The notes: generated by a model not told the origin, from the sequence alone. A stretch of 64,000 nucleotides of DNA from Chloroflexota bacterium (GCA_037441345.1 JBBISJ010000006.1:3530-67529), one strand, 5' to 3'; shown: positions 23,311 through 50,350, numbered from the stretch's first letter. Numbers and translations: made by a program.

Positions 23311-23358
23311 TTGTCAATATCCCTTGAAGCAATTGAACAAAAGAACAATCGAACAAGC
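23311..23358. repeat. GAACAA 8-bp-periodic array, locus A (TTGAACAA AAGAACAA TCGAACAA), in the arsR/decarboxylase divergent promoter region
   Basis: three tandem xxGAACAA octamers; AT-rich relative to the genome; similar arrays at 47419, 49735 and 50284. Confidence 0.6.
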
Positions 23359-23418
23359 GGAGCGATGGGCCCCTTTCATTACTCACCACCCCCCTCCGTG
23401 GTATCGTTTCGTGCTGGT

Positions 23419-24849
23419 ATGAACGGCCGACCGGCAGAGATGACTCCAGACGAGTTCCGGCGCTATGGCCACGAGCTGATCGACTGGATCGCCGAGTACC
23501 TGGAGAACGCCGAGCGCTACCCTGTCCTCTCGCCGGTGAAGCCCGGCGAGGTTCGCTCCCGGCTGGCCGCTTCGCCACCCCAAAACGGGGAGCCGTTCGG
23601 GGCGCTCCTGCGCGACGTGAACGAGGTGATCTTGCCGGGCATCACGCACTGGCAGTCGCCGAACTTCTTCGCCTTCTTTCCGTCGAACAACTCCTACCCC
23701 GCCATCCTCGGCGACCTGCTGTCGTCCGGCCTCGGCGTTCAGGGCATGCTCTGGTCGACGAGTCCGGCGTGCACCGAGGTGGAGACGCTGGTGATGGACT
23801 GGCTGGTGGAGATGCTCGGCCTCCCGGAGCGATTCCGCTCGTCCTCGCCCGGAGGCGGCGTCATCCAGGACAGCGCGTCGACCGCAACGCTCGTGGCCCT
23901 GATCGCCGCGCGGGAGCGGGCGACGCGCGGCCGCAGTAGCCGGGCGGGGGCTAGCGGCGAGCGGCTGGCGGTGTACACGTCGTCGCAGGCGCACTCGTCT
24001 GTCGAAAAGGGCGTCCGGATAGCGGGGATCGGCAGCGACAACCTGCGTTTGGTGGACGTGGACGAGTCGTTCGCAATGCGGCCGGAGGAGCTGGCGCGCC
24101 TGATCCGGGCCGACCGGGAGGCCGGCATCAGCCCGGCGATGGTCTGCGCCACGGTGGGGACCACGTCGTCCGGCGCCATCGATCCGCTGGGAGCGACCGG
24201 GGCGATCTGCCGCGAAGAGGGCATCTGGCTTCACGTCGACGCCGCGATGGCCGGCACGGCGGCCGTGTGCCCCGAGTTCCGCTGGATCCAGGACGGCCTC
24301 GAATACGCAGACAGCTACGTCTTCAACCCGCACAAGTGGATGGGCGTCCAGTTCGACTGCAGCGCCTTCTTCGTCGCCGACCGGTCGGCGCTCACCTCCG
24401 CCCTGAGTATCGTCCCCGAGTACCTGCGTAACGCCGCGAGCGAGTCCGGTGAGGTGATCGACTACCGGGACTGGCAGCTTCAGCTGGGACGTCGCTTCCG
24501 GGCGCTCAAGCTCTGGTCTCTGATCAGATCAGAGGGGGTCTCGGGGCTACAGGAGATGGTGCGCCGTCATGTTGCGCTTGCCCGGGAGTTCGCATCGTGG
24601 GTCGAGGCGGACCCGGAGTTCGAGATCGCCGCGCCGCACCCGCTGAGCCTGGTCTGCTTCCGCCACAAGGGAGGCGATGACGTAAATCGCGCCATCATGG
24701 ACCGCGTCAATGTCGGCGGCAAAGCATACTTCACCCACACGGTGCTGGACGACAGAGTCACCTTGCGCATGTCCATAGGTCAGCGCCGGACTGAACTCTC
24801 TCACGTACGGGCGGCGTGGGAGGCCATCCGCACGGCCGCGATGGGCTAA
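23419..24849 (+). CDS. pyridoxal-dependent (group II) amino-acid decarboxylase, aromatic-L-amino-acid/glutamate decarboxylase-like
   Basis: FFAFFPSNNSYPAILGDLLSSGLG and the PLP-lysine region NPHKWMGVQFDCSAFFV. Confidence 0.8.
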   Translation: MNGRPAEMTPDEFRRYGHELIDWIAEYLENAERYPVLSPVKPGEVRSRLAASPPQNGEPFGALLRDVNEVILPGITHWQSPNFFAFFPSNNSYPAILGDLLSSGLGVQGMLWSTSPACTEVETLVMDWLVEMLGLPERFRSSSPGGGVIQDSASTATLVALIAARERATRGRSSRAGASGERLAVYTSSQAHSSVEKGVRIAGIGSDNLRLVDVDESFAMRPEELARLIRADREAGISPAMVCATVGTTSSGAIDPLGATGAICREEGIWLHVDAAMAGTAAVCPEFRWIQDGLEYADSYVFNPHKWMGVQFDCSAFFVADRSALTSALSIVPEYLRNAASESGEVIDYRDWQLQLGRRFRALKLWSLIRSEGVSGLQEMVRRHVALAREFASWVEADPEFEIAAPHPLSLVCFRHKGGDDVNRAIMDRVNVGGKAYFTHTVLDDRVTLRMSIGQRRTELSHVRAAWEAIRTAAMG

Positions 24850-24869
24850 TTCCACTCTCCACTCTCCAC

Positions 24870-25835
24870 TCACGGCACCATCACGACCCGCCCGAACGCC
24901 TGCCGGCTCTCGATGTACCGGTGCGCCTCAGCGGCCTCGGACAGCGGATATGTCCGGTCGATCACGACACGCAGCTTCCCATCGGCCACGTCGCGGATCA
25001 GGCCCTCGACCAGCGGCCGCCCGCGCATCGGCTCGAACATGAGAGAGCCGCCGAAGAACACGCCGGTCAGGGAGCGGTTCATCTCGCTCAGCTTGCCCAC
25101 GTCGAGAGCACGCGACTCCGAACGGCCGGCGTTACCCACGCTCACGATCCGCCCGTGGTAGGCCGTCGCGTCGATGCTCCCAAGCAGCGTCGTCCCCACC
25201 GAGTCTACGACGAGGTTGACGCCCCCGCCCGACGCCGCCTTCACCTTCGCCACCCAGTCGCCCTCGCGGTAGTTGATGCCGTGGTCCAGGCCGAAGTCCT
25301 TTAGCCGATCCAGCCTCTCGTCGCTCGACGCGGTCGCCAGCACCGTCGCACCGGCCTGCTTCGCCAGCTGGATCGCCGCCAGCCCAACGCCCCCCGCGCC
25401 GGCCTGGATCAGCACCTTCTCGCCCGCCTGCAACTTCCCGAACTCGAACAGGCAGTCGTGCGCAGTGCCGTACGCTATCGGCACGCAGGCCGCCTGCGCC
25501 GGATCCATGCCGTCGGGTACCGGAAACGTCTGCATTGCCGCCACGGCAACCCGCTCGGCGTGCGACCCAAACGGCATCACTGCCACGACCATCTGCCCCA
25601 CCTGCCGGTCGGTCACTGCCGAGCCGACCTCTCGAACGATGCCCGCACACTGGTAGCCGACGATGTGCGGCCTGGACGCCATCTCGCCACCCGCCCGATT
25701 CAGCACGTCGCCGCCCTCGATCGAGATCGCCTTCACGTCAAGGGCCACAGCCCCCGGCGCGCATTCCGGATCGGGCCTGTCCTCGTAGCGGAACACGTCG
25801 GGCGATCCGGTCTCATAGTAAACAGCGGCTTTCAT
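24870..25835 (-). CDS. zinc-type alcohol dehydrogenase / NADPH:quinone oxidoreductase (MDR family)
   Basis: MKAAVYYETGSPDVFRYEDRPDP N-terminus and a Rossmann GAGGVGLAAIQLAK. Confidence 0.8.
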   Translation of the reverse strand: MKAAVYYETGSPDVFRYEDRPDPECAPGAVALDVKAISIEGGDVLNRAGGEMASRPHIVGYQCAGIVREVGSAVTDRQVGQMVVAVMPFGSHAERVAVAAMQTFPVPDGMDPAQAACVPIAYGTAHDCLFEFGKLQAGEKVLIQAGAGGVGLAAIQLAKQAGATVLATASSDERLDRLKDFGLDHGINYREGDWVAKVKAASGGGVNLVVDSVGTTLLGSIDATAYHGRIVSVGNAGRSESRALDVGKLSEMNRSLTGVFFGGSLMFEPMRGRPLVEGLIRDVADGKLRVVIDRTYPLSEAAEAHRYIESRQAFGRVVMVP

Positions 25836-25894
25836 CGTGGTGGTCCCTCCTCACCGTTTGTTTCGCCCGCACGGGATGTTAGAATCGGTGGGGC

Positions 25895-25971
25895 GGGCGA
25901 TTAGCTCAGTTGGTTAGAGCGCAGCGTTGACATCGCTGAGGTCGTAGGTTCAAATCCTACATCGCCCACCA
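25895..25971 (+). tRNA. tRNA-Val (anticodon GAC)
   Basis: GGGCGAT acceptor paired with ATCGCCC, D-arm GCTCAGTTGGTTAGAGC, anticodon loop TTGACAT, T-arm GGTTCAAATCC, CCA encoded. Confidence 0.85.
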
Positions 25972-26218
25972 CGAATTGAACATCACAGGCGACGACCGGG
26001 ACGAGTAGCCACGGCAAGGTCACCAGGGAAGCGAGCCACGACTGAAAGCGAGCCGGCCCCCTGCCACGGCGAAAACCACCCGCGAGCCGGCCGCCAACCC
26101 GTCAGACGAAGGCCGGACTTCAGCCCGGCAATCTGGCGTCAGGCGGCCCCGGAGGCACCCGTTACCGGCCGAATGAGCCCCCGCGACAGCGGGAGGAAGC
26201 TGGGTGGAACCACGGTAA

Positions 26219-26255
26219 CCCCCGTCCCACAATCGGGATGGGGGCTTCTCTTTTT
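26219..26255 (+). terminator. intrinsic terminator (CCCCCGTCCC-ACAATC-GGGATGGGGG + CTTCTCTTTTT)
   Basis: 10-bp GC stem followed by a U-rich tract; about 250 nt downstream of tRNA-Val with no convincing ORF in between. Confidence 0.65.
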
Positions 26256-26313
26256 CGAGGGGGGCCACTCTCCGTAGCGGAAGGATTCAGCCTTCCACGG
26301 AAGCCGAAAATAA

Positions 26314-26556
26314 ATGAGCGAGAAGAAAGCGAGCGTCATCACCGACAACAGCCTGGGCATGCTCGTCCTGCGCGCCTGGCTCTGGCTCGTCCCCATCGCG
26401 ATGCTGCTGGCGGCGCTCGGCTTCGGCGCTTATGCCGCCGCGGACGCCCGCTGGGCGCTGTTCGGCATCATGGTCGTGATGGCGTTCGTCGCGGTCGGCC
26501 TCCTCGCCTTTCACTGGTGGATCCTCTACCGCTTCGGCAAGGAACCGCCGCCGTGA
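26314..26556 (+). CDS. small membrane protein (2 TM), hypothetical
   Basis: 80 aa with two hydrophobic helices; its stop overlaps the next small ORF start (GTGA). Confidence 0.4.
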   Translation: MSEKKASVITDNSLGMLVLRAWLWLVPIAMLLAALGFGAYAAADARWALFGIMVVMAFVAVGLLAFHWWILYRFGKEPPP

Positions 26557-26885
26557 AGCTCCTCTACCGCTGGCTCGGCGCCGAGATCGTCTTCGTCCAC
26601 GTCGGCCACGGCCTCGTCGGCGTCGGCATCATCGCGGTTCTCGCGGTCAGCATCCCGTGGTGGTTCACGCTCGCGCTGACGCCCCTGATCGCCTTCTCCC
26701 TCGCCTTCTGGCTGAAGGAGTCGCAGTTCGTGATGCCCGTCGCCCGCCGCTACCTGTCCGGCAACCCGCATCCGGAAGGAAACTGGATATCGGGGATTGG
26801 CGACGGGCCCGATACCAACACCCCCATTCCCCATTTCCTATCTCCCGCCGACTCCCCCCACCGACCACCGGACACCAACCACTAA
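26553..26885 (+). CDS. small membrane protein (2-3 TM), hypothetical, GTG start
   Basis: VKLLYRWLGAEIVFVHVGHGLVGVGIIAVLAVSIPWWFTLALTPLIAFSLAFWL; ends 10 nt before thrS. Confidence 0.4.
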   Translation: MKLLYRWLGAEIVFVHVGHGLVGVGIIAVLAVSIPWWFTLALTPLIAFSLAFWLKESQFVMPVARRYLSGNPHPEGNWISGIGDGPDTNTPIPHFLSPADSPHRPPDTNH

Positions 26886-26894
26886 AGGAGCCAC

Positions 26895-28652
26895 ATGCCT
26901 GACCTCCAATCCCTCCCCAAAGACGAGCGCCTCGAGCGCATGCGTCACTCCGCCGCCCACATTATGGCCGAGGCCGTCCTCGAGATGTTCCCCGAGGCGA
27001 AGCTCGGCATCGGGCCGCCCATCGACACCGGCTTCTACTACGACTTCGACCTCCCCCGCGCGCTCTCAACCGACGACCTGCCGGAGATCGAGGAGCGCAT
27101 GCGCCGGCGCATCGAGTCCGACGCGGCGTTCCAGCCGTCCACCATCACCAGGGACGAGGCTCGCGCCATGTTCGCCGACCAGCCGTACAAGATCGAGCTG
27201 ATCGACGAGATCCCCGAGGACGAGGAGATCGGCCTCTACCGCCAGGGCGAGTTCGTCGACCTCTGCCACGGCCCCCACGTCAGCACCTGCGGCCAGGTGC
27301 CGGCCTTCAAGCTCATGTCCGTCGCCGGCGCCTACTGGCGCGGCAGCGAGGACCGGCCGATGCTCCAGCGCATCTACGGCGCCCTCTTCGACACGCAGGA
27401 GGAGCTGGACGAGTACCTCCACAACCTGGAGGAAGCGCAGCGCCGCGACCACCGCCGCCTCGGCCGGGAACTCGACCTCTTCTCCTTCCACGAGGACTTC
27501 GGCCCCGGCCTCGTCTACTGGCACCCAAAGGGCGGCCGCGTCCGCACGATCATCGAGGACTTCTGGCGCCGCGCCCACTTCGACGCCGGCTACGACCTCG
27601 TCTACACGCCCCACATCGGGAAGTCCACGCTCTGGCAGACGAGCGGCCACCTGGACTTCTACAACGAGAACATGTACTCGGCGATGGATATCGACGGGCA
27701 GGACTACTACGTCAAGCCGATGAACTGCCCCTTCCACATCCAGATCTACAAGAGCGACGTCCGCAGCTACCGCGACCTCCCTATCCGCATGGGCGAGCTC
27801 GGCACCGTCTACCGCTACGAGCGCTCCGGCGTCCTCCACGGCCTCCTGCGCGTCCGTGGCTTCACCCAGGACGACGCCCACATCTTCTGCCGCCCGGACC
27901 AGGTCCGCTCGGAGGTCGAGCGCTGTGTCGACTTCATGATGTTCTTCCTCGGAGCCTTCGGCTTCGAGAAGTTCCACGTTTACCTCTCCACCCGCGACCA
28001 GGCCGGCAAGTGGGCCGGCTCGCTCGAGGACTGGGACATGGCGACGAACACCCTCCGCGACGTGATCGAGGACCGCAAGCTGCCCTACGACGTCGACGAG
28101 GGCGGCGCGGTCTTCTACGGGCCCAAGATCGACGTCAAGATGATCGACGCCATCGGCCGCGAGTGGCAGTGCACCACCATCCAGTTCGACTTCAACCTGC
28201 CGGAGCGGTTCGACGTCAGCTTCATCGGCGAGGAAGGCTCGCGGCAGCGGCCGTTCATGGTCCACCGGGCACTGCTCGGCTCCATCGAGCGCTTCTTCGG
28301 CGTGCTCGTCGAGCACTACGCCGGCGCCTTCCCGATGTGGCTCGCGCCCGTCCAGGCGTCCGTCATCCCCATCGCCGACCGCCACATCCCCTACGCCGAC
28401 GAGGTCGCCGCCGAGCTGCGGGCCGCCGGCCTGCGCGCCGAGGTCGACGCCCGCAACGAGCGGATGCAGGCCAAGATCCGCGACGCCCAGCTCCAGAAGG
28501 TGCCGTACATGCTCGTTGTCGGCGACCGCGAGGCCGAGGCCCGCGCCGCCGCCGTCCGCCTCCGCTCAGGCGAGGACCTGAAGGCCCTGCCCGTGACGGA
28601 GATCATCGCCCGCATGCAGGCCGAGGCCGCCGTCCAGGAGTTCCGGGCCTAA
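26895..28652 (+). CDS. thrS: threonine--tRNA ligase (short form lacking the N-terminal TGS domain)
   Basis: editing-domain HSAAHIMAEAV, class II motifs (FRYERSGVLHGLLRVRGFTQDDAHIF) and the anticodon-binding C-terminus. Confidence 0.9.
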   Translation: MPDLQSLPKDERLERMRHSAAHIMAEAVLEMFPEAKLGIGPPIDTGFYYDFDLPRALSTDDLPEIEERMRRRIESDAAFQPSTITRDEARAMFADQPYKIELIDEIPEDEEIGLYRQGEFVDLCHGPHVSTCGQVPAFKLMSVAGAYWRGSEDRPMLQRIYGALFDTQEELDEYLHNLEEAQRRDHRRLGRELDLFSFHEDFGPGLVYWHPKGGRVRTIIEDFWRRAHFDAGYDLVYTPHIGKSTLWQTSGHLDFYNENMYSAMDIDGQDYYVKPMNCPFHIQIYKSDVRSYRDLPIRMGELGTVYRYERSGVLHGLLRVRGFTQDDAHIFCRPDQVRSEVERCVDFMMFFLGAFGFEKFHVYLSTRDQAGKWAGSLEDWDMATNTLRDVIEDRKLPYDVDEGGAVFYGPKIDVKMIDAIGREWQCTTIQFDFNLPERFDVSFIGEEGSRQRPFMVHRALLGSIERFFGVLVEHYAGAFPMWLAPVQASVIPIADRHIPYADEVAAELRAAGLRAEVDARNERMQAKIRDAQLQKVPYMLVVGDREAEARAAAVRLRSGEDLKALPVTEIIARMQAEAAVQEFRA

Positions 28653-28656
28653 CACC

Positions 28657-28686
28657 CGTAGGGGCGCGTCATGATGCGCCCCTACG
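28657..28686. repeat. REP-like 30-nt palindrome, copy 2, immediately after the thrS stop
   Basis: identical to 21987..22016; may serve as a thrS transcript-end hairpin. Confidence 0.8.
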
Positions 28687-29168
28687 CCCATCATGGACCT
28701 CTGTCGAAGCCCTTCAGGCCCGTTGGGGACCGCATTCCGCCCATCCTGAGGACCGCAGCATCTCGAAGGGCCGTCATTCCCGCGCAGGCGCCTGCCCGCC
28801 TTGTGAGGGGGAATCCATGGCTCAATCAGAGGGGATTTATACCCGCCGGTTGATTGTGTTTTCGCGGTCAGGTTCAGTCTTTGATTGTGCCGCGGCTGAA
28901 TAATTGCTTTTCTCGCGACAGGCCGGGCGTTTTGTGTCTGCGGGGCCGGTGAGGAACACCCTCGCTGTTTGATTGCCTCCGATCCATGGGCGTGACCCGG
29001 AGGATTCAATTCGAGCGGCGGTCTTGCTGGGCAGGGAGCATGTGGGCATGAGAGCATCGTAACGGAGGGGCGGGGCGATCTCCGAGGGGGAAGTGGCGCG
29101 GGCGGGTGAACGGGAGCCTGGCCCCGGCGGCCGACCCCACCGTCATTCCGGCGAAAGCCGGAATCCCA

Positions 29169-29330
29169 TCACGTGCCATTGGCGCCTGGTGACTCGTCCG
29201 CATCCTCACCGATAGCCCCCACCCAGGCCCTCGCGGTGCTCCAAACGCGCTTGACCAGGTCGCTCGTCACTCCCGTGTACAGGGTGCCGTTGCGCTTGCT
29301 GGCCATGATGTAGACGAACGGCTGTTTGTC
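29169..29330 (-). pseudogene. GIY-YIG nuclease (UPF0213/YhbQ-like) remnant, frameshifted and truncated
   Basis: PFVYIMASKRNGTLYTGVTSDLVKRVW (GIY...YIG) in frame; the expected continuation EHREGLGGGYR is in the +2 frame and then hits a stop; no ATG start. Confidence 0.45.
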
Positions 29331-29440
29331 CAATGCAGGCCAATCGTCATTGATTCCGGCCCTGCAGGCCCGTTGGGCGTTCGCCGGAACGACGGAATGG
29401 CACGAATAAGCTGAACGGGGTGAGGGCAGCCTGCCGGGTC

Positions 29441-29542
29441 GCTGGCTCCCTGGCTGCTGGCTCCTGGCTCCCGGCTCCCGGCTCCTCGGCTCCTGGCTCC
29501 TGGCTGCTGGCTCCTGGCTGCTGGCTCCTGGCTGCTGGCTCC
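29441..29542. repeat. tandem heptanucleotide repeat (GGCTSCY) x ~14
   Basis: GGCTCCT/GGCTGCT/GGCTCCC units are contiguous; translation of this repeat explains the QQPGASSQEP low-complexity N-terminus of ORF 29169..29597. Confidence 0.85.
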
Positions 29543-29623
29543 TTCCGTTTGATGGCGCCCAAACGCCTGTGCTATTATCCGGACATAGCAGTGACATCAG
29601 CCATTACCAAGGGGAACTAGACT

Positions 29624-30214
29624 ATCGCCCGCGAGCTTCGCACGAACGAGCGGATCCGCGCGCGCGAAGTCCGCGTCATAGGAGCGAACGGGGAAAACTA
29701 CGGCGTTATCCCCTTCTCCGAGGCGATGAACCGGGCCAGGGAAACCGGCCTTGACCTCGTGGAGGTTGATGCCAACGCGAACCCTCCCGTCTGCCGGATA
29801 CTGGACTACGGCAAGTTCAAGTACGACCAGGCGAAGAAGGAGCGCGAGGGACGCAAGCACCAGAAGGGGACGATGATCCACGAGGTGCGCCTCCGCCCCC
29901 GGACGGGACAACATGATATCGACCTGAAGGTACGGATCGCCGGCCGGCTGCTGGCGGAAGGCGACAAGGTGAAGCTCTCCGTCATGTTCAGGGGCCGCGA
30001 GATGTCTCACCCAGAGGTGGGCCAGGAAGTGCTGGACAAGGCGCTGGCCGGGCTTGGAGACCTGGTGAGCGTCGAGAAGCCGCCCGGCATGGAGGGCCGC
30101 TTCCTGACGGTGATCCTGACGCCGAACGCGAAGAAGCCAGTGGCCGCGAAAGCGGCGGTGGTGGAGGCAGCGCCGGAGGCGGAACCAGAGAAGGCAGAGG
30201 AAAAAGTTGGCTAA
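29624..30214 (+). CDS. infC: translation initiation factor IF-3, with a non-AUG (AUC) start
   Basis: ...ERIRAREVRVIGANGENYGVIPFSEAMNRARETGLDLVEV...; an in-frame TAG lies at 29618-29620, so the N-terminal domain must start at ATC 29624, 8 nt after an AAGGGG SD; the first ATG (29726) would delete the N-domain. Confidence 0.75.
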   Translation: MARELRTNERIRAREVRVIGANGENYGVIPFSEAMNRARETGLDLVEVDANANPPVCRILDYGKFKYDQAKKEREGRKHQKGTMIHEVRLRPRTGQHDIDLKVRIAGRLLAEGDKVKLSVMFRGREMSHPEVGQEVLDKALAGLGDLVSVEKPPGMEGRFLTVILTPNAKKPVAAKAAVVEAAPEAEPEKAEEKVG

Positions 30215-30221
30215 ATACAAG

Positions 30222-30410
30222 ATGAAGACACACTCCGGCGCCAAGGGCCGCTTCTGGATTACCGGGAGCGGCAAGATCCTGCGCCGCAAGATCGGGGCCA
30301 ATAACTTCCGCCGCAAGAAGCGCGGCGAGACACTGCGCGATATCTCCGGCAAGGTCGCCGTTTCCCCGCACGTCGTCAAGCGGCTGCGGAAGATGCTGCC
30401 CTACGCCTGA
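30222..30410 (+). CDS. rpmI: 50S ribosomal protein L35
   Basis: MKTHSGAKGRFWITGSGKILRRK...LPYA. Confidence 0.85.
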   Translation: MKTHSGAKGRFWITGSGKILRRKIGANNFRRKKRGETLRDISGKVAVSPHVVKRLRKMLPYA

Positions 30411-30429
30411 CCACGAGGAGTAACGAGAG

Positions 30430-30798
30430 ATGCCACGAGCACGAGGCGGAGTTGTCACTCGCCGCCGGCACAAGAAGATCATCAAGCAGGCCAAGGGTCA
30501 CAGGGGCGGCCGTCACAAGATATTCAAGCTGGCGAACGAGTCCGTCATGCACGCCCTCCGCTACGCTTACGAGCACCGGCGGGACCGCAAGGGCGACTTC
30601 CGGCGGCTGTGGATCCAGCGGATCAACGCGGCGGCGCGCCTGAACGGCCTGAGCTACTCCCGCCTGATATTCGGCCTCTCAAAGGCCGGCGTGGACGTCG
30701 ACCGCAAGATGCTCGCCGACCTGGCGGTGCGCGACGAGAAGGCGTTCGCGAGCATAGCGAAGACCGCGAAAGACGCGATCGCTGCGCCCGCAGCCTGA
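30430..30798 (+). CDS. rplT: 50S ribosomal protein L20
   Basis: [70 protein letters not shown]. Confidence 0.9.
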
Positions 30799-30871
30799 CA
30801 CAAGCCGACGAGGCCAGGCCGGCGCCTGCAGAGCCAGGCTCTCACGTGAGCTGGTGATTGCTCCGGATGAC

Positions 30872-30946
30872 GGGGCAGTACCTCAAGGGTAGAGGATCAG
30901 TCTTATAAACTGACGGTTGCGGGTTCGAGTCCTGCCTGCCCCACCA
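30872..30946 (+). tRNA. tRNA with anticodon UAU (tRNA-Ile, AUA-decoding type), CCA encoded
   Basis: acceptor GGGGCAG paired with CTGCCCC, D-stem CCTC/GAGG, anticodon stem TCAGT/ACTGA with loop CTTATAA, T-arm GCGGG-TTCGAGT-CCTGC, discriminator A. Confidence 0.7.
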
Positions 30947-30978
30947 GGGACAACTTCGCAGATCGCGGCGCCCGGTTG

Positions 30979-33387: not shown

Positions 33388-33392
33388 TCACC

Positions 33393-34439: not shown

Positions 34440-34613
34440 AGGAGCAATGCGGATTGCGGCAGGGGCGCGACGGCTATTATAGGTTGGCGTCGCGGCGGGC
34501 GGCAATCGATCAGCAGCCCCCTGCCGGACGCGCGAGCCAGCGCCCGCTTTGTTGACCCCAACGTGGACGCGATGCTAACGTGCCGGTGAGCGCTTACCTT
34601 AGCACTCGTTCAG

Positions 34614-36633: not shown

Positions 36634-36651
36634 GGCGGCTAGTCAGATTCG

Positions 36652-40297: not shown

Positions 40298-40336
40298 CGC
40301 CGGGCTATCGTAACACCGATCTGCCCGGGCCGGACG

Positions 40337-42753: not shown

Positions 42754-42836
42754 GATTGGCGCTTATCATAGGGAACGGCCCGAAGGCTGGCAACGGCGTG
42801 TCCAGCGCTGCAACGGACTCTATACTGGGCCGCGGT

Positions 42837-43976
42837 ATGTCGATTGACCGGACGACAATCATCGCGGCCTTCGAACAGACTTACAGTTACCAGCCGCGCC
42901 TCGTCTCCGAGGCGCCGGGACGGGTCAACCTCATCGGCGAGCACACGGACTACAACGGCGGCCTTGTCTTTCCCGTGGCGATCGACCGGACGGTGGCGGT
43001 CGCCGCCGCACGGCGGGACGATGACGTCGTCCGCGTCAAGTCTCTGGACTTCGACCAGTGCGACGAGTTCCGGATCGACGCCGTCAAACGGTTCATGGGC
43101 AGCCGGGGCTGGCGCGACTACGTCCGCGGGGTGGCCTGGGCGCTGCAGGACGAGAACATTCCGTTGCGCGGATGCGACATGGTTATCACGGGCGACGTCC
43201 CGCAGGGCGCGGGACTGTCGTCTTCGGCCGCAATCGAGGTGGCCGCCGCGGGCGCGCTTGCCGCCGTTGCCGGGGCGACAACCGCAGGCCGTGAACTCGC
43301 CCTGGTCTGCCAGAAGGCCGAAAACCTGTTCGTCGGCGTGCAGTGCGGCATCATGGACCAGTTGGTCTCGGTGCTGGGAAAGGCCGGTCACGCCATGCTG
43401 ATCGACTGCCAGAGCCAGACGTATGAATACGTGCCACTGCCCGAGGCCGTTGCGATCGTGATCGTCGACTCAAAAGTGCCGAGACGGCTCAGCGATACGG
43501 ACTACAATCTGAGGCGTGAGGAATGCGCCCAGGCCGCTCAGGCGCTTGGCATGGACTCGCTGCGAGACGCGACCGAATCTATGCTCGCCGCACTCCAGGA
43601 CCCGCTCAGGAAGCGGGCCCGCCACGTTATCACCGAGAATGAGCGGGTGATCAGGATGGTGGACGCCCTGAGGACTCGCGACCTGTCGACGGCGGGCAAC
43701 CTGATGTATGACTCACACAAGAGCCTGCGCGATGAGTTCGAAGTCTCAACGCCCGAGCTTGACCTGCTGGCCGATCTCTCGCGCGCCTGCCGGGGAGTGA
43801 TCGGTGCGCGACTGACGGGCGCCGGGTTCGGCGGCTGCACCGTGAACCTGTTGGAAACAGAATCAATCGGTCGATTCCAGATCAACGTTGTCGACCGGTA
43901 CTGCGAACGCACTGGCCTTGTCGCCGAAACCTATGTTTGCCAGGCCGTCGACGGATTGAGGGTGGCAGATGTCTGA
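42837..43976 (+). CDS. galK: galactokinase (GHMP kinase)
   Basis: PGRVNLIGEHTDYNGGLVFPVAID and the GHMP ATP motif GAGLSSSAA; start taken at MSIDRTT. Confidence 0.85.
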   Translation: MSIDRTTIIAAFEQTYSYQPRLVSEAPGRVNLIGEHTDYNGGLVFPVAIDRTVAVAAARRDDDVVRVKSLDFDQCDEFRIDAVKRFMGSRGWRDYVRGVAWALQDENIPLRGCDMVITGDVPQGAGLSSSAAIEVAAAGALAAVAGATTAGRELALVCQKAENLFVGVQCGIMDQLVSVLGKAGHAMLIDCQSQTYEYVPLPEAVAIVIVDSKVPRRLSDTDYNLRREECAQAAQALGMDSLRDATESMLAALQDPLRKRARHVITENERVIRMVDALRTRDLSTAGNLMYDSHKSLRDEFEVSTPELDLLADLSRACRGVIGARLTGAGFGGCTVNLLETESIGRFQINVVDRYCERTGLVAETYVCQAVDGLRVADV

Positions 43977-46203
43977 TCGAGTCGGCCTGGAGGAGACAGA
44001 GCACGGGACGGCGCTGGACAACGGGGTGGTGAGGGTGGAGGTGTATCTCAAGCGGGGTACGTACGACGTCATTGACGCGGGGGGCGCGACAGTCCTCGCC
44101 GGAGGGGCCGCTTCTGTCCGGTTGAGCGACGGTTCCCGCTTCACGACCCGGGGTGAGGAACTTGAGGTCGCAGGGGCGAAAGATGTCGAGGACGCGCACG
44201 GCAAAGGCGTTTCCCTGTTCCTTTCCCGTGAGGCCTCGAATAGCGACCCTGAGCTACACCTCATCGTCACCCTGTACGAAAGCCAGCCGTTTGCCGTGGT
44301 ACAGGCCGACGTCCAGAACCTCGCGCCTGCTCCGGTGCAGGTGCAGGAGATGCGGCCGATGGACGGCGCAACGCTTCACCTGGGCGCCCCGGCCGAGACG
44401 CTGCGGTTCTACAAGCACGGCTGGCAGAGCTGGTCGCCGACGATCGTCCTGGACTGTTCCGGAGACGACGTGCACGCCTCCCCGCCGGTCATCGGCCCCG
44501 GGACACAGCCCAACCCCGAGCCCGGCCGGTTCGTGTCCGACCTATTGACGGTGATCGTCGACTCTCCCACCGATCGGGGCGTTATCGCCGGCTTCATCTC
44601 GGCAGCGGATCAGCTATCCCAGGTCTGGTTCGACCGCGACCCGTCACAGCTGACAGCGGCCTCGTACGCCGACGGCGTTTCCCTGGCCCACCGTGAAACG
44701 CTCGCGTCCGAGCGTCTCTACATCGAGCCCACGACCCGTCCCCTGGCCGCCCTCGAATCGTACGGCGACGCGCTTGGGCGTGAGATGGGCGCTGCCCCAG
44801 GTGAGCAGGTCACGAGCGGCTGGTGCAGCTGGTACTACTACTGGCAGGGGGTCAGCGAGGCCGAAGTCATCGCAAACCTCGAACACCTCGCCGCCAACCG
44901 CGACGGCCTCCCCGTTGAATACGTCCAGATCGACGACGGTTACCAGTCCGAGATCGGCGACTGGCTAACAGTGAACGAGAAGTTCCCGCACGGCATGAAA
45001 TGGCTGGCGGATGAGATCCACGCGAAGGGATACAAGGCGGGGCTCTGGGTCGCGCCTTTCCTGGCGGGAGCGAAGTCGCGACTGTTCCACGAGCACCCGG
45101 ACTGGTTCGCGAAGTTCAGCACGGGTGAGCCGGCCATCGCGACGCTGAACTGGGGACAGCTCTGCTACGCCATTGACCTGACCCACCCCGACGTACAGCA
45201 GTGGCTACGCGACGTCTTCCGGACCATCTGCGACGAGTGGGGTTACGACTACGTGAAGATCGACTTCATCTTTGCGGGAGCGGTCGACGGTGTGCGACAC
45301 GATCCCAACGTGACCCGGGCCCAGGCCTACCGGAAGGGCGTTGATATCATCCGCGACGCCGTGGGCGGCCGGTTCATCCTGGCCTGTGGCAACCCCCAGG
45401 GGCCGAGCGTCGGCCTGGTGGACGGTGCACGCGTCAGCCCCGACACCGCGCCGTACTGGCTCGCGTTCGACCGCCCCGGCCCGCGCACGCCGCTGAGTGA
45501 CCCCGCCGCGATCAACAGCATCCGCAACAGCATCGACCGGTTCTGGATGCACGGACGCCTCTGGATGAACGACCCCGACTGCCTTATCGTCCGCGCAACC
45601 GACACGGCGCTCACACTCGACGAAGTGCGCTCCCTCACGGCCATGATCGGCATGACGGGAGGGATGGTGCTGAGCAGCGACAATCTCACGAAGTTGACGC
45701 CGGAACGCCAGGAATTGATCTCGTTGCTCCTCCCGGTATACGGCAAGAGCGCCGTACCGCTCGACCTGTTCAGCGGGCCCGAAGTCCCGCAGGTGCTGGA
45801 ACTGGACTGCGGTACTCACCGCATGCTGGCGCTGTTCAACTGGAGCGACCAGGAGGCGGTGGTCGAGGGGCCGATTCCGGACGGCGAGTGGCACGCCTTT
45901 GAGTTCTGGGCCGAGGCGTACCTGGGGCGCCTGAGTTCGGTGCTCTCGCTCGCGATCCCCGCGCACGACTGCAAGCTGATGCGGCTCACGCGCGCCACCG
46001 GTCATCCGCAGGTCGTCGGCAGTACGCTCCACCTGCTGCAGGGCGCGATGGAGATCGCGTCCGAGGAATGGGATGGGCGATCGCTTCGGGTTGAGCTACG
46101 CCCGGTCGCGAAGAAGGATGGCGCGATCTACGTTTGGCGAGACGGCGGGGTCGAACGCGTGGCGATCGAAGGACTGCGCGAACCCCAGACGCTGATCCTC
46201 TAG
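43969..46203 (+). CDS. alpha-galactosidase, glycoside hydrolase family 36
   Basis: IDDGYQSEIGDWL, KAGLWVAPF and DYVKIDF (GH36 catalytic barrel); its start overlaps the galK stop. Confidence 0.85.
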   Translation: MSDRVGLEETEHGTALDNGVVRVEVYLKRGTYDVIDAGGATVLAGGAASVRLSDGSRFTTRGEELEVAGAKDVEDAHGKGVSLFLSREASNSDPELHLIVTLYESQPFAVVQADVQNLAPAPVQVQEMRPMDGATLHLGAPAETLRFYKHGWQSWSPTIVLDCSGDDVHASPPVIGPGTQPNPEPGRFVSDLLTVIVDSPTDRGVIAGFISAADQLSQVWFDRDPSQLTAASYADGVSLAHRETLASERLYIEPTTRPLAALESYGDALGREMGAAPGEQVTSGWCSWYYYWQGVSEAEVIANLEHLAANRDGLPVEYVQIDDGYQSEIGDWLTVNEKFPHGMKWLADEIHAKGYKAGLWVAPFLAGAKSRLFHEHPDWFAKFSTGEPAIATLNWGQLCYAIDLTHPDVQQWLRDVFRTICDEWGYDYVKIDFIFAGAVDGVRHDPNVTRAQAYRKGVDIIRDAVGGRFILACGNPQGPSVGLVDGARVSPDTAPYWLAFDRPGPRTPLSDPAAINSIRNSIDRFWMHGRLWMNDPDCLIVRATDTALTLDEVRSLTAMIGMTGGMVLSSDNLTKLTPERQELISLLLPVYGKSAVPLDLFSGPEVPQVLELDCGTHRMLALFNWSDQEAVVEGPIPDGEWHAFEFWAEAYLGRLSSVLSLAIPAHDCKLMRLTRATGHPQVVGSTLHLLQGAMEIASEEWDGRSLRVELRPVAKKDGAIYVWRDGGVERVAIEGLREPQTLIL

Positions 46204-46838
46204 CCAGTCTCGTCCAGCAAGAACACCCGCGCGGGCGCCCCGTCCGCACCGACCACCGGCAGCGGCGCGCAGACGATCGTGTATTCGCCGGGCGGCACGT
46301 CCCGCAGGTCCAGTCCCTCAAGTATCACGACGTTCTTCGCCAGCAAAGCGTGGTGCACGGCGTGGGTCGGCGAGCGGAACCGCTCGATGGACATGTAGTC
46401 GATGCCGACCAGGACGAGCCCGCGCTCTGTCAGCCATTCGCCTGCGTCCTCCGCAAAGCCGATGAACTCCTCGTGAAACCCATCGTCGTCCCACAGGCCA
46501 GCGTTGCGGGTCTTCGCGAGCAGCCGGGTTGTGCCGGGCGGAATGTGCGCCGCATCGAGGTCCGCGGCGGTGATGTGCGACCCGCCTGGGAACTCCACGA
46601 CCCGGCAGGGGCCCACCAGGTGTTCGATCGGCATCTGCTCCACTGTCACGCCGTTGTCCAAGAAGTGGTCCGGCGCGTCGACGTGCGTGCCGGTGTGCGA
46701 ACCGAGGGAAAGCTCGCTCACGTTGGCGGAGTCGCCGCGACTCATCAGTGAATGGAATCGAAGCCTTGGACCGGGCTCATCGTCGGCGTAGGTGGGGATT
46801 GTCGGTCTCAGCGGAACGGTGATGTCGTGGATGCGCAA
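46200..46838 (-). CDS. cyclase-family protein (kynurenine formamidase-like)
   Basis: HSLMSRGDSANVSELSLGSHTGTHVDAPDHF (HxGTHxDxPxH metal site). Confidence 0.75.
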   Translation of the reverse strand: MRIHDITVPLRPTIPTYADDEPGPRLRFHSLMSRGDSANVSELSLGSHTGTHVDAPDHFLDNGVTVEQMPIEHLVGPCRVVEFPGGSHITAADLDAAHIPPGTTRLLAKTRNAGLWDDDGFHEEFIGFAEDAGEWLTERGLVLVGIDYMSIERFRSPTHAVHHALLAKNVVILEGLDLRDVPPGEYTIVCAPLPVVGADGAPARVFLLDETG

Positions 46839-46897
46839 CGGCGGACTCCTGAATGCCCATTATGCGGCATATTCCGCGGTGATACCCTGAGGATGCA

Positions 46898-47230
46898 ATG
46901 CCTGAACCCACACCGCTTTCTGAGTCCCAGATCCAATCGGCCATCGCCGAACTCGATGGGTGGGAGATCCGCGACGGCCGGCTGCGCAAGCCGTTCACGT
47001 TCCGGACGTTCCTGCGGGCGATCGCCTTCGTCAACTCGGTGGGCTACCTCGCGGAGGGCGCCGGTCATCACCCGGACATCACGATCAACTACAACAAGGT
47101 GACGTTGCGGATCATCACGCACGCTGTCGGTGCGCTCACCGAGCGAGATTTCTCGCTTGCCGCGGAGATTGACGCAAAGCTGGGGTCGAAGCTGATGATC
47201 CAGCCGGAGGGGAAAACAAAAAGCGCCTGA
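46898..47230 (+). CDS. 4a-hydroxytetrahydrobiopterin (pterin-4-alpha-carbinolamine) dehydratase
   Basis: GWEIRDGRLRKPFTFRTFLRAIAFVNSVGYLAEGAGHHPDITINYNKVTL. Confidence 0.85.
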   Translation: MPEPTPLSESQIQSAIAELDGWEIRDGRLRKPFTFRTFLRAIAFVNSVGYLAEGAGHHPDITINYNKVTLRIITHAVGALTERDFSLAAEIDAKLGSKLMIQPEGKTKSA

Positions 47231-47418
47231 ACGCCGGCCAGATTCGCTTCCAGATCTCCCGGGTTGCCCCGCGAGTCCCTTTCGCTGCACCGCACCGGCC
47301 GCTCAGGCAACGACAAGCATGCTCCCGCCGCGATAAGAAGTCAATACCGTTCGCCCACGAAATTCTCACCCTTATCGAAACGACAACGAAAACGGGTGGC
47401 GGCGAGCCAGCGACTCCC

Positions 47419-47443
47419 GTGTTCCATTGTTCAACCGTTCCCC
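47419..47443. repeat. GAACA octamer array, locus D (GGGAACGG TTGAACAA TGGAACAC on the - strand), in the purB leader
   Basis: GTGTTCCATTGTTCAACCGTTCCC lies about 65 nt upstream of the purB ATG. Confidence 0.55.
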
Positions 47444-47506
47444 GTAAGATGGGCACGTGGTCACCGCCCAGGGCCCTCAAGACAGCGCAGGCCTGCGTCT
47501 CTCCAG

Positions 47507-48796
47507 ATGATCGAGCGCTACACACGCCCCGAGATGGGCGCCGTCTGGTCCGAGAAGAACAAGGCGGACACGTGGCTGCAGGTCGAAATCGCCGTCTGCG
47601 AAGCCTGGGCTGAACGCGGCGTAATCCCTGCGCAAGACATGGCGAAGATTCGCGGCGCCTCGTACAACCTCGAGAAATGGCGCGAGTACGAGCGCGAGAT
47701 GCACCACGACTTCAACGCCTTCGTGCGGTCCGTTGCCGACTCACTGGGCGAGGAGTCGCGGTGGGTTCACTTCGGGTTGACCTCGTACGACGTCGAGGAC
47801 ACCGCGCTCGCCCTGCGCCTGGTGCAGGCGACGGAGATCCTGCAGGCCGGCATCGAGACTCTGCTCGACGTCATCGCCGTGCGGGCCCGCGAGCACAAGC
47901 ACACACCGACGATGGGCCGCAGCCACGGCGTCCACGGCGAGCCGATCTCCTTCGGGCTGAAACTGGCGGGCTGGTGGGACGAGATGCGGCGGAACTCGCA
48001 CCGCCTGGTTCACGCGAAAGAGCAGGTCGCAGTCGGGAAGATCTCGGGCCCAGTCGGTTCTCATGCCACGGTGCCGCCGGACCTCGAAGACGACGTCTGC
48101 GGGCGCCTGGGCCTGCTGGTGGAGCCGATCTCAACGCAGATCGTACACCGAGACCGCCACGCGCATTTCATCGCGACGCTCGGCGTGATCGCTTCGTCGC
48201 TGGACCGCATCGCGACCGAGATCAGGCACCTGCAGCGGACCGAGGTCCTGGAGGCCGAGGAGCCGTTCTCCACGGGGCAGACCGGGTCGTCGTCGATGCC
48301 GCATAAGCGAAACCCGGAGAAGTGTGAGCGCATCTCTGGACTCGCCCGCCTGATCCGCGGGTTCGCAGCGCCGGCGATGGAGAACGTAGCGCTCTGGCAC
48401 GAGCGGGACATTTCGCACTCGTCGGTGGAACGGGTCATGTTGCCGGATGCGTGTATTGCGCTCGATTACGTCCTCGACCTGATGACCTACGTTATCCGCG
48501 GGATGCAGGTCTACCCTGACCGCATGGCAGCCAACATGGAGATGAGCTTCGGTCTCCCGTTCAGCCAGCGCGTCCTGCTGGCGCTGATCGACAAGGGGAT
48601 GAACCGGCAGGAGGCGTACAAGATCGTGCAGTCGAACGCTATGAAGGCATGGGAGGCGAAGCAGCCATACCTGGGCTTCCTGCAGGGAGACCAGCGGGTC
48701 ACTGACCTGTTGTCCGGCGATGAACTCGCATCGCTGTTTGATACGGCCTGGTACCTCCGTTATGTCGACCAGAGTTTTGAGAGGTTGGGCTTATGA
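47507..48796 (+). CDS. purB: adenylosuccinate lyase
   Basis: MIERYTRPEM start and the fumarate-lyase signature GSSSMPHKRNP. Confidence 0.9.
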   Translation: MIERYTRPEMGAVWSEKNKADTWLQVEIAVCEAWAERGVIPAQDMAKIRGASYNLEKWREYEREMHHDFNAFVRSVADSLGEESRWVHFGLTSYDVEDTALALRLVQATEILQAGIETLLDVIAVRAREHKHTPTMGRSHGVHGEPISFGLKLAGWWDEMRRNSHRLVHAKEQVAVGKISGPVGSHATVPPDLEDDVCGRLGLLVEPISTQIVHRDRHAHFIATLGVIASSLDRIATEIRHLQRTEVLEAEEPFSTGQTGSSSMPHKRNPEKCERISGLARLIRGFAAPAMENVALWHERDISHSSVERVMLPDACIALDYVLDLMTYVIRGMQVYPDRMAANMEMSFGLPFSQRVLLALIDKGMNRQEAYKIVQSNAMKAWEAKQPYLGFLQGDQRVTDLLSGDELASLFDTAWYLRYVDQSFERLGL

Positions 48797-49689
48797 CCGC
48801 AGTCCTCACTGAATCAGTCCTTGACCTTCCACTCCTGTCACGGGGCAAGGTCCGCGACATCTACGACCTGGGCGACAAGCTGCTGATCGTCGCTACCGAT
48901 CGCCTGTCCGCCTTCGATGTCGTGCTGCCGACGGGAATACCCGACAAGGGCGCCGTCCTCACCCAGATGTCCGCGTTCTGGTTCGAGAAGACGGGCGATA
49001 TCGTCCCCAACCATTTCATCCGCGTCGTCGACGGAACCCCTGTGCCCGAGGTGCCGGTCGACATGCCGCGCGAGATGATCGGCAGGGCGATGGTCGTGAA
49101 GAAGGCTGAGCGGCTGGACGTGGAGTGCGTCGTGCGCGGGTACATAACCGGGTCCGGCTGGGCGGACTACAGGAGATCGGGCGCCATCTGCGGCGTCGAG
49201 CTGCCGGACGGACTCGAGGAGAGCCAGGAGCTGCCGGAGCCGATCTTCACACCGACGACGAAGGCAGAAGAGGGCCACGACCTCCCGATCTCCTACGCCG
49301 AGGTCGTTGACCTGGTGGGTGAGCGGGCGGCCAACGCAACCCGCGTACGAGCCCTCGCCCTCTACCGCTTCGGTCGGGACTTCGCCCGCGAGCGCGGGAT
49401 TATCATCGCCGACACCAAGTTCGAGTTCGGCTGGCTCGACGATGAAGTGATCCTGATCGATGAGGCGCTGACGCCGGACTCCAGCCGTTTCTGGCCCGCG
49501 GACCACTACCGCACCGGCGGGTCGCTGCCGAGCTTCGACAAGCAGTTCGTGCGGGACTACCTGAACGACATCGGCTGGGACAGGACGCCGCCGGGGCCGG
49601 AACTGCCGCCGGAGATCGTCGATAGGACGGCCGCGAAGTATCGCGAGGCGTTCGAGCGGATCACGGGCCGGACGCTGATCCGGGCCTAG
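48793..49689 (+). CDS. purC: phosphoribosylaminoimidazole-succinocarboxamide (SAICAR) synthase
   Basis: LLSRGKVRDIYDLGDKLLIVATDRLSAFDVVLP; its start overlaps the purB stop. Confidence 0.9.
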   Translation: MTAVLTESVLDLPLLSRGKVRDIYDLGDKLLIVATDRLSAFDVVLPTGIPDKGAVLTQMSAFWFEKTGDIVPNHFIRVVDGTPVPEVPVDMPREMIGRAMVVKKAERLDVECVVRGYITGSGWADYRRSGAICGVELPDGLEESQELPEPIFTPTTKAEEGHDLPISYAEVVDLVGERAANATRVRALALYRFGRDFARERGIIIADTKFEFGWLDDEVILIDEALTPDSSRFWPADHYRTGGSLPSFDKQFVRDYLNDIGWDRTPPGPELPPEIVDRTAAKYREAFERITGRTLIRA

Positions 49690-49734
49690 AGGTTGGATGG
49701 TCCACAGATGACACGGATGACTCAGACTTGCGAT

Positions 49735-49812
49735 GTGAACAGTAGCGTATCGGAACAATGGAACAGTAGAACAATGCCGTCCTGTTCAATTCTTCTATTG
49801 CTCAACTGTTCC
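49735..49812. repeat. GAACAAT 8-bp-periodic array, locus B (GGAACAAT GGAACAGT AGAACAAT then TGTTCAAT TCTTCTAT TGCTCAAC TGTTCC)
   Basis: three direct octamers followed by four inverted-type octamers; lies between purC and the PPOX-family gene. Confidence 0.65.
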
Positions 49813-49844
49813 GGAAACCCGCGGTCCGCGGAGCTTGAATAGAC

Positions 49845-50270
49845 GTGCCGGTCCTGGCGCCGGACGTCGAGGAGTTCTTGCGCGGGGCGCACGTCGCGGC
49901 GCTCGCCACCATCCGGCCGGAAGGGCGCCCTCACGTCGTGCCGGTCTGGTACGAGTGGGACGGCCGCGAGTTCACGATGGCCTCGTTCCGGCAGATGCAG
50001 AAGGTGAAGAACATCACCCAGAAGGGGTTCGCAGCGCTGAGCATCTTCACGAGCGATCTGCCTTACTTCCAGGTGACCGTCGAGGGCCCTGCCCGCATCG
50101 GCGGGGCGATCGACAACGTCTGGCGCGAGCGCGTCGCCGTGCGCTATCTTGGCGAGGCAGCGGGGCGCGCCTACGCGCAGGACACGATGGATCTCGATGC
50201 GGTCGCCATCACTCTCCGGCCGCTGAAATGGCACCTGGAGGGGTTTGGAGAGGTGCGAGGTCACAGGTGA
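49845..50270 (+). CDS. PPOX-class (pyridoxamine 5'-phosphate oxidase-like) F420/FMN-binding split-barrel protein
   Basis: AHVAALATIRPEGRPHVVPVWYEWDGREFTMAS. Confidence 0.7.
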   Translation: MPVLAPDVEEFLRGAHVAALATIRPEGRPHVVPVWYEWDGREFTMASFRQMQKVKNITQKGFAALSIFTSDLPYFQVTVEGPARIGGAIDNVWRERVAVRYLGEAAGRAYAQDTMDLDAVAITLRPLKWHLEGFGEVRGHR

Positions 50271-50283
50271 GAGCATGGGACCA

Positions 50284-50350
50284 GTGGAACAATAGAACAA
50301 TGGAACAACTGAACAATTCTGCATCTATTCAATTGTTCGACTGTTCAATT
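50284..50350. repeat. GAACAAT 8-bp-periodic array, locus C (GGAACAAT AGAACAAT GGAACAAC TGAACAAT TC...TTCAATTG TTCGACTG TTCAATTG)
   Basis: four direct octamers, a 10-nt spacer, then three inverted octamers; contains the GAACAATT-N12-AATTGTTC palindrome. Confidence 0.7.

Follow-up and report, generated by a model that had tools for sequence, protein, structure and literature searches.

Four intergenic loci in a 64-kb stretch of the genome of a Chloroflexota bacterium (64,000 nucleotides, GCA_037441345.1 JBBISJ010000006.1:3530-67529; hereafter, the window) carry tandem arrays of octamers that share the core GAACA and repeat with a period of 8 bp. An earlier note on this DNA proposed that the arrays, three of which lie around pur genes, are either binding sites of a PurR-like or other multimeric regulator or a family-specific miniature repeat. 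In this work, the arrays were studied by a comparative genomics approach combined with analyses of copies found elsewhere. We report that they are probably copies of a dispersed, non-coding, foldback-like miniature repeat composed of 8-bp units and served by a postulated trans-acting factor. The four arrays, designated A to D, are recent, lineage-specific additions to intergenic DNA. In some lineages the family enters neighbouring intergenic gaps and is absent from close syntenic relatives, and its copies change by gain or loss of whole 8-bp units.

The arrays were found at the coordinates given previously, and their periodicity, claimed in the earlier note, is confirmed. The pattern GAACA-N3-GAACA has 9 exact matches in the window, all within the four loci, versus 0.07 expected from dinucleotide shuffles, and the three-unit pattern with at most two mismatches has 12 matches versus 0.03 expected. 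A core-agnostic detector of pentamers repeated three times with a period of 8 bp returned seven matches in the 64 kb, all of them GAACA or AACAA, versus 0.16 in shuffles; no other pentamer was found by it in this arrangement. The genes at the arrays had also been named correctly according to Pfam: arsR, a pyridoxal phosphate (PLP)-dependent decarboxylase, purB, purC, a PPOX/F420-type gene (PNPOx-like), a DinB-like gene (DinB_2), and purS.

Two of the arrays are one-armed. Array A (23327-23358, plus strand) contains four direct, in-register units, AAGCAATT GAACAAAA GAACAATC GAACAAGC, with the cores AAGCA at 23327 and GAACA at 23335, 23343 and 23351. Array B (47420-47440, minus strand) contains three units with the cores GAACG, GAACA and GAACA on the minus strand; on the plus strand it reads TGTTCCAT TGTTCAAC CGTTC (TGTTC at 47420 and 47428, CGTTC at 47436). 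Arrays C and D are two-armed composites, in which an array of direct units is followed by an array of inverted ones. In array C, the left arm (49737-49776, plus strand) consists of direct GAACA-type units at 49737, 49745 (degenerate), 49753, 49761 and 49769, and the right arm (49783-49811, minus strand) of the inverted units TGTTC at 49783, TCTTC at 49791, TGCTC at 49799 and TGTTC at 49807. In array D, six direct units (GAGCA, GACCA and four times GAACA; 50271-50318, plus strand) are followed by four to five inverted units (TATTC, TGTTC, TGTTC, TGCTC; 50326-50354, minus strand), and the array includes the previously described palindrome GAACAATT-N12-AATTGTTC. The composite build was thus seen correctly in the earlier note; however, it belongs to the third and fourth loci, for which the labels B and C were used in the note, and the fourth locus starts at 50271, not at 50284. 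The linkers are of the AAT/AGT flavour. We regard them as one family rather than as independent microsatellites, because the same core and linker flavour recur at four to five loci, while each of the other short tandem arrays in the window, heptamer arrays included, has a unique unit (period detector, TRF). The possible fifth locus is a weak, low-confidence candidate for a degenerate array, GAGCATGT GGGCATGA GAGCA (29036-29056, plus strand), composed of G[A/G]GCA units in non-coding DNA downstream of thrS.

Evidence for recent insertion is provided by orthologous loci in related genomes. A second assembly (L001; contig DAOTZW010000078.1, metagenome-assembled genome (MAG) GCA_034434195.1) shares 99.98% identity with the window and is uninformative. 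The nearest named homologues of PurC belong to Dehalococcoidia and Chloroflexi MAGs (76-78% identity), indicating a high-GC Chloroflexota as the source. The gene order is kept in relatives whose PurC proteins are 88%, 85% and 82% identical to that of the window. According to the gene tables of these relatives, purC is separated from the PNPOx-like gene by 1-3 bp, and the latter overlaps the DinB-like gene. In the window, the corresponding junctions are occupied by two blocks of additional DNA: about 155 bp with array C from the purC stop to the PNPOx start (49690-49844; alignment and BLAST against the related contig L243, TRF, and a repeat finder), and about 97 bp with array D from the PNPOx stop to the DinB start (50271-50367; alignment and BLAST against L243), the latter with a Shine-Dalgarno-like GAAGGAGG at its end. 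Since the junctions of the relatives are of 1-3 bp or overlapping and the window holds extra DNA compared with L243, arrays C and D are lineage-specific insertions into a once gapless operon. The insert with array C additionally contains (CACRGATGA)x2.7 at 49703-49726 and a CCGCGGTCCGCGG palindrome.

The one-armed arrays are equally absent from the orthologous sites. Array B ends 4 bp before a -10-like hexamer upstream of purB (ATG at 47507). This upstream region aligns with L243, including the hexamer itself (TAAGAT at 47445-47450 in the window, TAGAAT in L243), and unrelated non-array sequence is found in L243 at the place of the array, between flanks that align. Array A is located directly upstream of the -35 element of a sigma-70-like arsR promoter, which is described here as context only (23289-23317, minus strand; TTGACA-17-TAAGAT, with 10 of 12 positions matching and 0.1 such sites expected). 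The promoter block is conserved in L367, which has non-array sequence in the place of the array. In the relatives, arsR faces a ferritin/Dps-like gene that is followed by the PLP decarboxylase gene (L366 2615-3130; L367 9465-9983); the ferritin/Dps-like gene has been lost in the window, and array A occupies that junction (23280-23420). The arsR transcript looks nearly leaderless, as the strong promoter ends 9 nt before the GTG start (23279-23317, minus strand). No array was detected at two or fewer mismatches in L243, L244 and L367 (63 kb together), and L366 has one, at gltX, which is a non-orthologous site. In total, 72 kb of related-genome DNA, including 42 kb syntenic with the window, contains a single array.

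Copies outside this lineage were collected from metagenome contigs with a composite pattern of three direct GAACA units, a gap of 5-35 nt, and two inverted units. This pattern had at least 120 matches, which were de-duplicated to at least 66 distinct loci, versus less than one match expected by chance according to our own estimate from the approximately 24 specified bases. Further copies were found in a Methylomirabilota MAG and in a MAG of the candidate division FCPU426. The direct-triple pattern was less productive in genome contigs, where the matches listed were mostly chance occurrences or plain (GAACAGCC)n microsatellites, two contigs (L106 and L113) being informative. In L113, from the FCPU426 MAG, two tandem composites with an assembly gap between them directly follow a tRNA gene and its terminator hairpin (4190-4500, minus strand).

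Among the matches listed, 69 instances originate from one human-gut organism, an Alistipes with a CydA protein 91% identical to that of A. timonensis. Its contigs contain 3-4 copies per 10 kb, and in one of them (L154) three copies occupy three consecutive gaps around cydAB. No GAACA arrays were found in the cydAB gaps of the syntenic A. timonensis-like genomes, from which the CydA identity of 91% was obtained. The Alistipes case therefore replicates the presence/absence result of the Chloroflexi in another phylum, Bacteroidota. In one of the A. timonensis-like contigs (L645, about 7060-7170 and about 9465-9580), those same gaps hold a repeat of about 110 bp, GTCATTCCGAGCGAACGGAGTGAGC...CCTCGCAATGACGTAA.

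The anatomy of the element was derived from 65 distinct copies. In a full copy, approximately four direct units, the most frequent number in the left arm, are separated by a spacer of variable length from 2-4 inverted units, which make up the right arm. The innermost cores of the two arms are 2 to 35 nt apart, with no fixed register between the arms, and the spacer is often a small GC hairpin. The unit consensus is GAACA-R-T-G, with logo frequencies of G.97, A.99, A.95, C.99, A.99, R.82, T.46 and G.4-.5. The core is thus invariant and the linkers are free, with a flavour that is specific to the lineage: AAT/AGT in that of the window, CGC/TGC in Alistipes. The strict 8-bp phase of an invariant core suggests recognition by a trans-encoded protein. 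The core-agnostic detector revealed the same opposed-array build with other cores, namely GAGAC (L400:900, L453:6352) and GTAAC (L559:2573). An everted order, in which TGTTC arrays precede GAACA arrays, is also seen, and further opposed arrays that are everted or have other cores are present at L016:212, L100:2945, and L115:3096 and 4703. Hence elements with opposed arrays of an 8-bp unit form a class, whose unit in this lineage and several others is GAACA-R-T-G. The alternative proposed in the earlier note, a family-specific miniature repeat, holds for the miniature repeat but not for its being family-specific, given its occurrence in several phyla and with other cores.

The genomic context of 65 non-Alistipes loci was classified with an open reading frame (ORF) caller aware of GC3, the G+C content at third codon positions. 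The copies lie between co-directional genes at 23 loci, convergent genes at 15, and divergent genes at 6; at 7 loci they were called inside a gene, probably by miscalls, and at the contig edges 9 adjoin the 3' end of a gene and 4 the 5' end. Copies are thus biased to the 3' ends of genes (convergent 15 versus divergent 6; edge 3' 9 versus 5' 4), and several of them fill tiny convergent gaps, with 8/8 bp in L174 and 16/16 bp in L150. The immediate neighbours are unrelated to each other: 95 such proteins match 128 Pfam families, none of which is represented by more than two proteins, and a single purine gene (PurA) is among them. Likewise, no protein family is recurrent among 479 proteins encoded at these loci.

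Comparison of closely related copies shows how the arrays change. Between near-identical strains, the difference amounts to exactly one unit (L192/L198) or two units (L136/L177), and the orthologous copies in L149 and L222 share their site and differ in unit number and spacer. The evidence for constraint on the core is mixed. In the homologous regions of two phages (L303/L341), the cores match at 20 of 20 positions and the linkers at 7 of 12; in the pair L153/L178, cores and linkers have decayed at about the same rate. Core constraint is real in some copies and weak in others.

Four other explanations of the arrays were considered. If the arrays were PurBox-type operators bound by a PurR-like repressor of the purine pathway, this would explain why three of the four loci adjoin purB, purC and purS; the Bacillus PurBox contains CGAAC-like bases, and the core CGAACA-W-T loosely resembles a part of it. 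The PurBox operator has a paired-box geometry, and the GAACA arrays possess neither that geometry nor a match to the consensus: the PurBox pattern AWWWCCGAACWWT has 4 matches in the window versus 4.61 expected at two or fewer mismatches, the two that fall in arrays needing two mismatches each. The arrays are also absent from the orthologous pur intergenic regions of the relatives, an outcome named in the earlier note as refuting its proposal; C and D were inserted downstream of genes and not upstream of a promoter, and one purine gene occurs among the 95 neighbours. That three loci surround purB, purC and purS, previously taken to suggest a PurR-like site, instead reflects local clustering of insertions, as around cydAB in Alistipes. 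We therefore consider this explanation highly improbable. A Pfam screen of ten proteins encoded next to the arrays in the window gave no match to a phosphoribosyltransferase (PRT)-type family, the fold of PurR. Other known sites did not account for the arrays either. In the arrays, the cores either recur in one direction every 8 bp or oppose each other over a distance of 9-18 bp, and none of the seven one-mismatch matches to the LexA Cheo box GAAC-N4-GTTC or the Verrucomicrobia TGTTC-N4-GAACA falls at an array; parS (TGTTNCACGTGNAACA) has no match at any array at three or fewer mismatches. The sequence GTGGAACA, which we take to be one parS half-site, occurs in the arrays as direct or everted halves, never as the full site. 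A more general operator model invokes a cooperative small protein, such as a ribbon-helix-helix protein (MetJ, ParG, omega) or a BldC/Xis-like winged helix-turn-helix protein, that would place one dimer or protomer on each 8-bp unit, regulating or organising adjacent genes including purB and arsR, and it predicts a protein in the carriers that binds (GAACAATG)4. The non-helical 8-bp period, a fair remark in the earlier note, is not decisive in this respect, since ParG and MetJ operators have that period. The ParG sites OF and parH of plasmid TP228 contain 8-12 direct and inverted boxes, each composed of ACTC with a 4-bp spacer and bound by one dimer (PMC3130281), and BldC, from a widespread family, binds 2-4 head-to-tail 9-bp repeats (PMC5859096). 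The invariant core with free linkers, its preservation in the phage pair, the lack of an RNA-level signature described below, and the position of A, B and the L366 array, all of which abut promoter hexamers in the same orientation, also fit such a protein. However, the arrays are not kept at orthologous promoters, C and D lie within an operon with no promoter-like site near, the neighbours are unrelated, the copies favour convergent pairs and the 3' ends of genes, a linked cognate gene was not found, the cores of L153/L178 decay, and the quick change in unit number would be odd for a tuned operator. On balance, this model appears doubtful, though it deserves consideration.

The remaining two explanations concern RNA hairpins and replication slippage. 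Composite copies may function in RNA as bidirectional terminators, 3'-end stabilisers or RNase III sites, as repetitive extragenic palindromic (REP) sequences do in enterics. Array C is foldable, and array D folds at -29 kcal/mol on the plus strand and -37 kcal/mol on the minus strand (z of -2.9 and -4.6); the 3'-end bias, the filled convergent gaps, and the mild self-complementarity of the spacers (0.40 versus 0.29) point in the same direction. In contrast, A and B do not fold (z about 0), and no mirror-specific covariation was found, mirrored linkers being complementary at 0.57 versus 0.57 in the non-mirrored control; the arms thus match because both are arrays of one unit. There is also no strand asymmetry in folding energy, that is, no sense-strand advantage of the G.U type (sense versus antisense 17 to 15, p = 0.82). 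The arm stems are AT-rich relative to the genome and lack flanking T-runs; no sense-strand intrinsic terminator was detected at C or D, the only terminator-like match being antisense at D and at the level of shuffles (1 versus 0.5). A search of 4227 Rfam covariance models gave no match at gathering or E-value thresholds, only sub-threshold matches to miRNA precursors such as any long hairpin gives. Moreover, efficient termination at C or D would presumably be harmful, as the DinB-like gene and purS follow both arrays in this operon and lack a promoter of their own downstream of them. An RNA function is accordingly judged unlikely, and the absence of mirror covariation, strand asymmetry, Rfam matches, terminators and new promoters favours a feature acting at the DNA level. 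Independent microsatellites, in which an 8-bp unit is expanded in situ by replication slippage with neither dispersal nor function, would account for the whole-unit differences between strains, and unrelated 7- and 9-bp intergenic tandem arrays are indeed present in the window. Direct 8-bp arrays of arbitrary cores are also abundant: in viral DNA, the control cores GACAA and ACGAA form four-unit direct arrays as often as GAACA does, with at least 120 matches each, and GTACA has 43. Slippage alone is nonetheless quite improbable, since one core and linker flavour recur at four to five loci in 64 kb where other arrays have unique units, the units of an array differ among themselves, the element entered three adjacent gaps at the same time in two unrelated lineages, and opposed composites are absent from all 397 control loci with direct arrays.

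As control cores are as frequent as GAACA, direct 8-bp arrays are generic, and the phage cases were consequently not used as functional evidence on the chromosomal element. A BLAST search with array D gave no match among plasmids and, among phages, 85 mycobacteriophages in which a four-unit direct array ends at the ATG of gp65. In Mycobacterium phage Adephagia (JF704105 42863-42894; L245 1500-1533) and 84 related phages, in-register units GGAACAAC TGAACAAA GGAACAAC TGAACAAT precede gp65 (phrog_1911), and an annotated 61-aa gp64 that overlaps them looks spurious. The homologous non-coding regions of the phage pair mentioned above (L303, about 168-196; L341, reverse strand, about 290) contain four GAACA units followed by two ..GCCACTCACTGGAACTACTATC motifs and a terminator-like hairpin. 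A scan of viral DNA for four direct units led to replication-initiator genes with iterons and (GGGGAACA)n. In prophage initiator genes (phrog_1408, phrog_2149), 3-4 TCGCGAG repeats spaced by about 10-11 bp are followed by (GGGGAACA)4-7 within the ORF (encoding ..RESVASPRETVAPGTGEQGNRGT..), for example in L258 (5499-6365), L300 (about 825-1634), and many of L246-L365, a layout that recalls an origin inside the initiator gene. These arrays were initially a candidate functional clue and were dropped, given that the control cores are about as frequent.

For the dispersed miniature repeat, which we prefer, the following mechanism may be envisaged. The element would act at the DNA level, and its two opposed arrays would offer multiple recognition sites to a trans-encoded protein responsible for copying or mobilising it, similarly to transposon ends or foldback elements. 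By some such copying route, the element would be added in lineage-specific bursts, often into adjacent gaps, and the inserted copies would be near-neutral, with slippage and point decay causing them to drift. Any consequences for the pur operon would then be incidental, with translational coupling lost and the Shine-Dalgarno-like sequences at the right-hand edges of the inserts possibly taking its place.

Several observations weigh against this interpretation. The inserted C and D blocks are mosaics, and since all of their linkers differ, C and D are not recent copies of a single master. No target-site duplication or clean boundary was found at the three insertion junctions, where the boundaries are obscured by the divergence of the relatives and the mosaic nature of the inserts. 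No transposase or partner gene is linked to the element, either among the 95 neighbours by Pfam or in the all-against-all comparison of the 479 proteins. The uneven constraint on the core and the abundance of direct arrays with arbitrary cores, both described above, belong here as well. The number of copies refers to the 64-kb window; furthermore, the patterns used for collection demanded GAACA, so that its apparent universality is partly circular and its excess over other cores in metagenomes is uncalibrated. A more ambitious idea, which we put forward as a speculation of low probability, is that the opposed GAACA arrays and their GAGAC and GTAAC counterparts are loading platforms for a small, widely distributed and as yet undescribed DNA-binding protein, with one subunit per 8 bp and about four units per arm, that bridges the two arms, forming a new chromosomal nucleoprotein element that spreads between neighbouring gaps. 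If so, the invariant core, the modal number of four units per arm, and the local clustering would be explained, and the element could serve, for example, as a domain boundary, a supercoiling barrier, or a centromere-like site.

No prior description of the element was found in Rfam or the searchable literature, in which the literal sequence matched only primers and the concepts only analogues. Eukaryotic foldback (FB) elements have inverted termini made of short tandem repeats with units of 10-31 bp, extend over hundreds to thousands of bp, and have documented transposition and target duplications; the likeness is one of architecture only, namely inverted tandem-repeat arrays, varying unit number, and a possibly minimal centre. 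MetJ metboxes, with an 8-bp period, and omega heptads are the same kind of multi-box operator as the ParG sites, with short boxes at a fixed period of 7-8 bp. The GAACA arrays share with the ParG sites the short boxes, the strict 8-bp period, the use of both orientations, a specific core, and a loose spacer. Those operators, however, adjoin the gene of their own protein as single-locus operators or centromeres, whereas the GAACA arrays are dispersed, unlinked to a gene, and not orthologously kept, with arms split by a variable spacer. As in miniature inverted-repeat transposable elements (MITEs), the opposed arrays form imperfect inverted repeats of 25-40 bp in whole elements of 50-90 bp that are non-coding. 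Between relatives of the carriers, presence and absence of the element are seen, and no duplication was seen at junctions whose boundaries are blurred as described above.

Bacterial intergenic repeats are the closest in kind. REP sequences and the related BIME and REPIN are single imperfect palindromes of 20-40 bp with a GTAG or CGTC tag that are linked to RAYT transposases (PMC3116915, PMC2817692, PMC3733652). The GAACA element resembles them in being short, non-coding, strictly intergenic, palindromic overall, multi-copy, biased to 3' ends and convergent pairs, found inside operons, mosaic, and patchy among close relatives; it differs in that each arm consists of tandem 8-bp units with no conserved terminal tag and that the copies within a genome are not near-identical. 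No gene for a RAYT (a Y1 transposase) was found in the 66 loci. The TAACTGA heptamer repeats of Beggiatoaceae, Cyanobacteria and Bacteroidetes and the cyanobacterial short tandemly repeated repetitive (STRR) sequences have a 7-nt unit, are almost always direct only, and lie mostly just upstream of start codons (PMC4679880). Like the GAACA arrays, they are short-unit tandems (2-6 copies there) at many intergenic sites, with one unit per family, a patchy distribution across phyla for which no transfer mechanism is evident, and unrelated neighbours; the GAACA unit, in contrast, has 8 nt with five fixed bases and forms two opposed arrays with a 3'-end bias. We group the element in kind with the REP/BIME/REPIN, MITE, and STRR/TAACTGA-type intergenic repeats (PMC3116915, PMC4679880).

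Other repeats were observed in the same genomes. An (GGCCACAGAT)x3 array, related to the CACRGATGA units, lies downstream of purS in L244 (about 12370-12400); together with the units in the insert of array C, it points to another family of short-unit repeats in these Chloroflexi. Different repeats, CCTCACCCC..GCGAGGGGCGATCTG and TTGAACAGAGCTGAAGCTCTGTCCGTACGA, occupy the gaps between purB and purC and between purC and the PNPOx-like gene of L244 (9734-10000 and 10898-11026), and it seems that repeats have settled repeatedly at the junctions of the pur operon. In the window, 7-bp tandem arrays are present directly after the decarboxylase stop ((TCCACTC)x3, 24851-24871) and at 58232-58258 ((AGGGTCG)x3.9). 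Fourteen copies of CTGGCTC (29442-29543) are located within a weak GIY-YIG-like ORF (29169-29597, minus strand) that may be no real gene. The window also contains a tmRNA gene (11658-12015, minus strand) and two tRNA genes (25895-25968 and 30872-30943), which are unrelated to the arrays.

With regard to genome annotation, these arrays are unfit for inferring a purine regulon or a novel transcription factor motif in Chloroflexi, and, with three copies clustered around pur genes, motif-discovery pipelines would be misled. The repertoire of bacterial intergenic repeats thereby gains a distinct architecture, in which tandem arrays of an 8-bp unit, with a core of five invariant bases, oppose each other. 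The element is present in four or more phyla, among its carriers being an Alistipes abundant in the human gut, enters adjacent gaps in bursts, and changes in 8-bp steps between strains, so that the arrays are potential markers for strain typing. They also separate genes that were once translationally coupled, as in this pur operon. Finally, as both carriers and element-free relatives are available in culture, it offers a tractable system for studying how a repeat spreads without a linked transposase.

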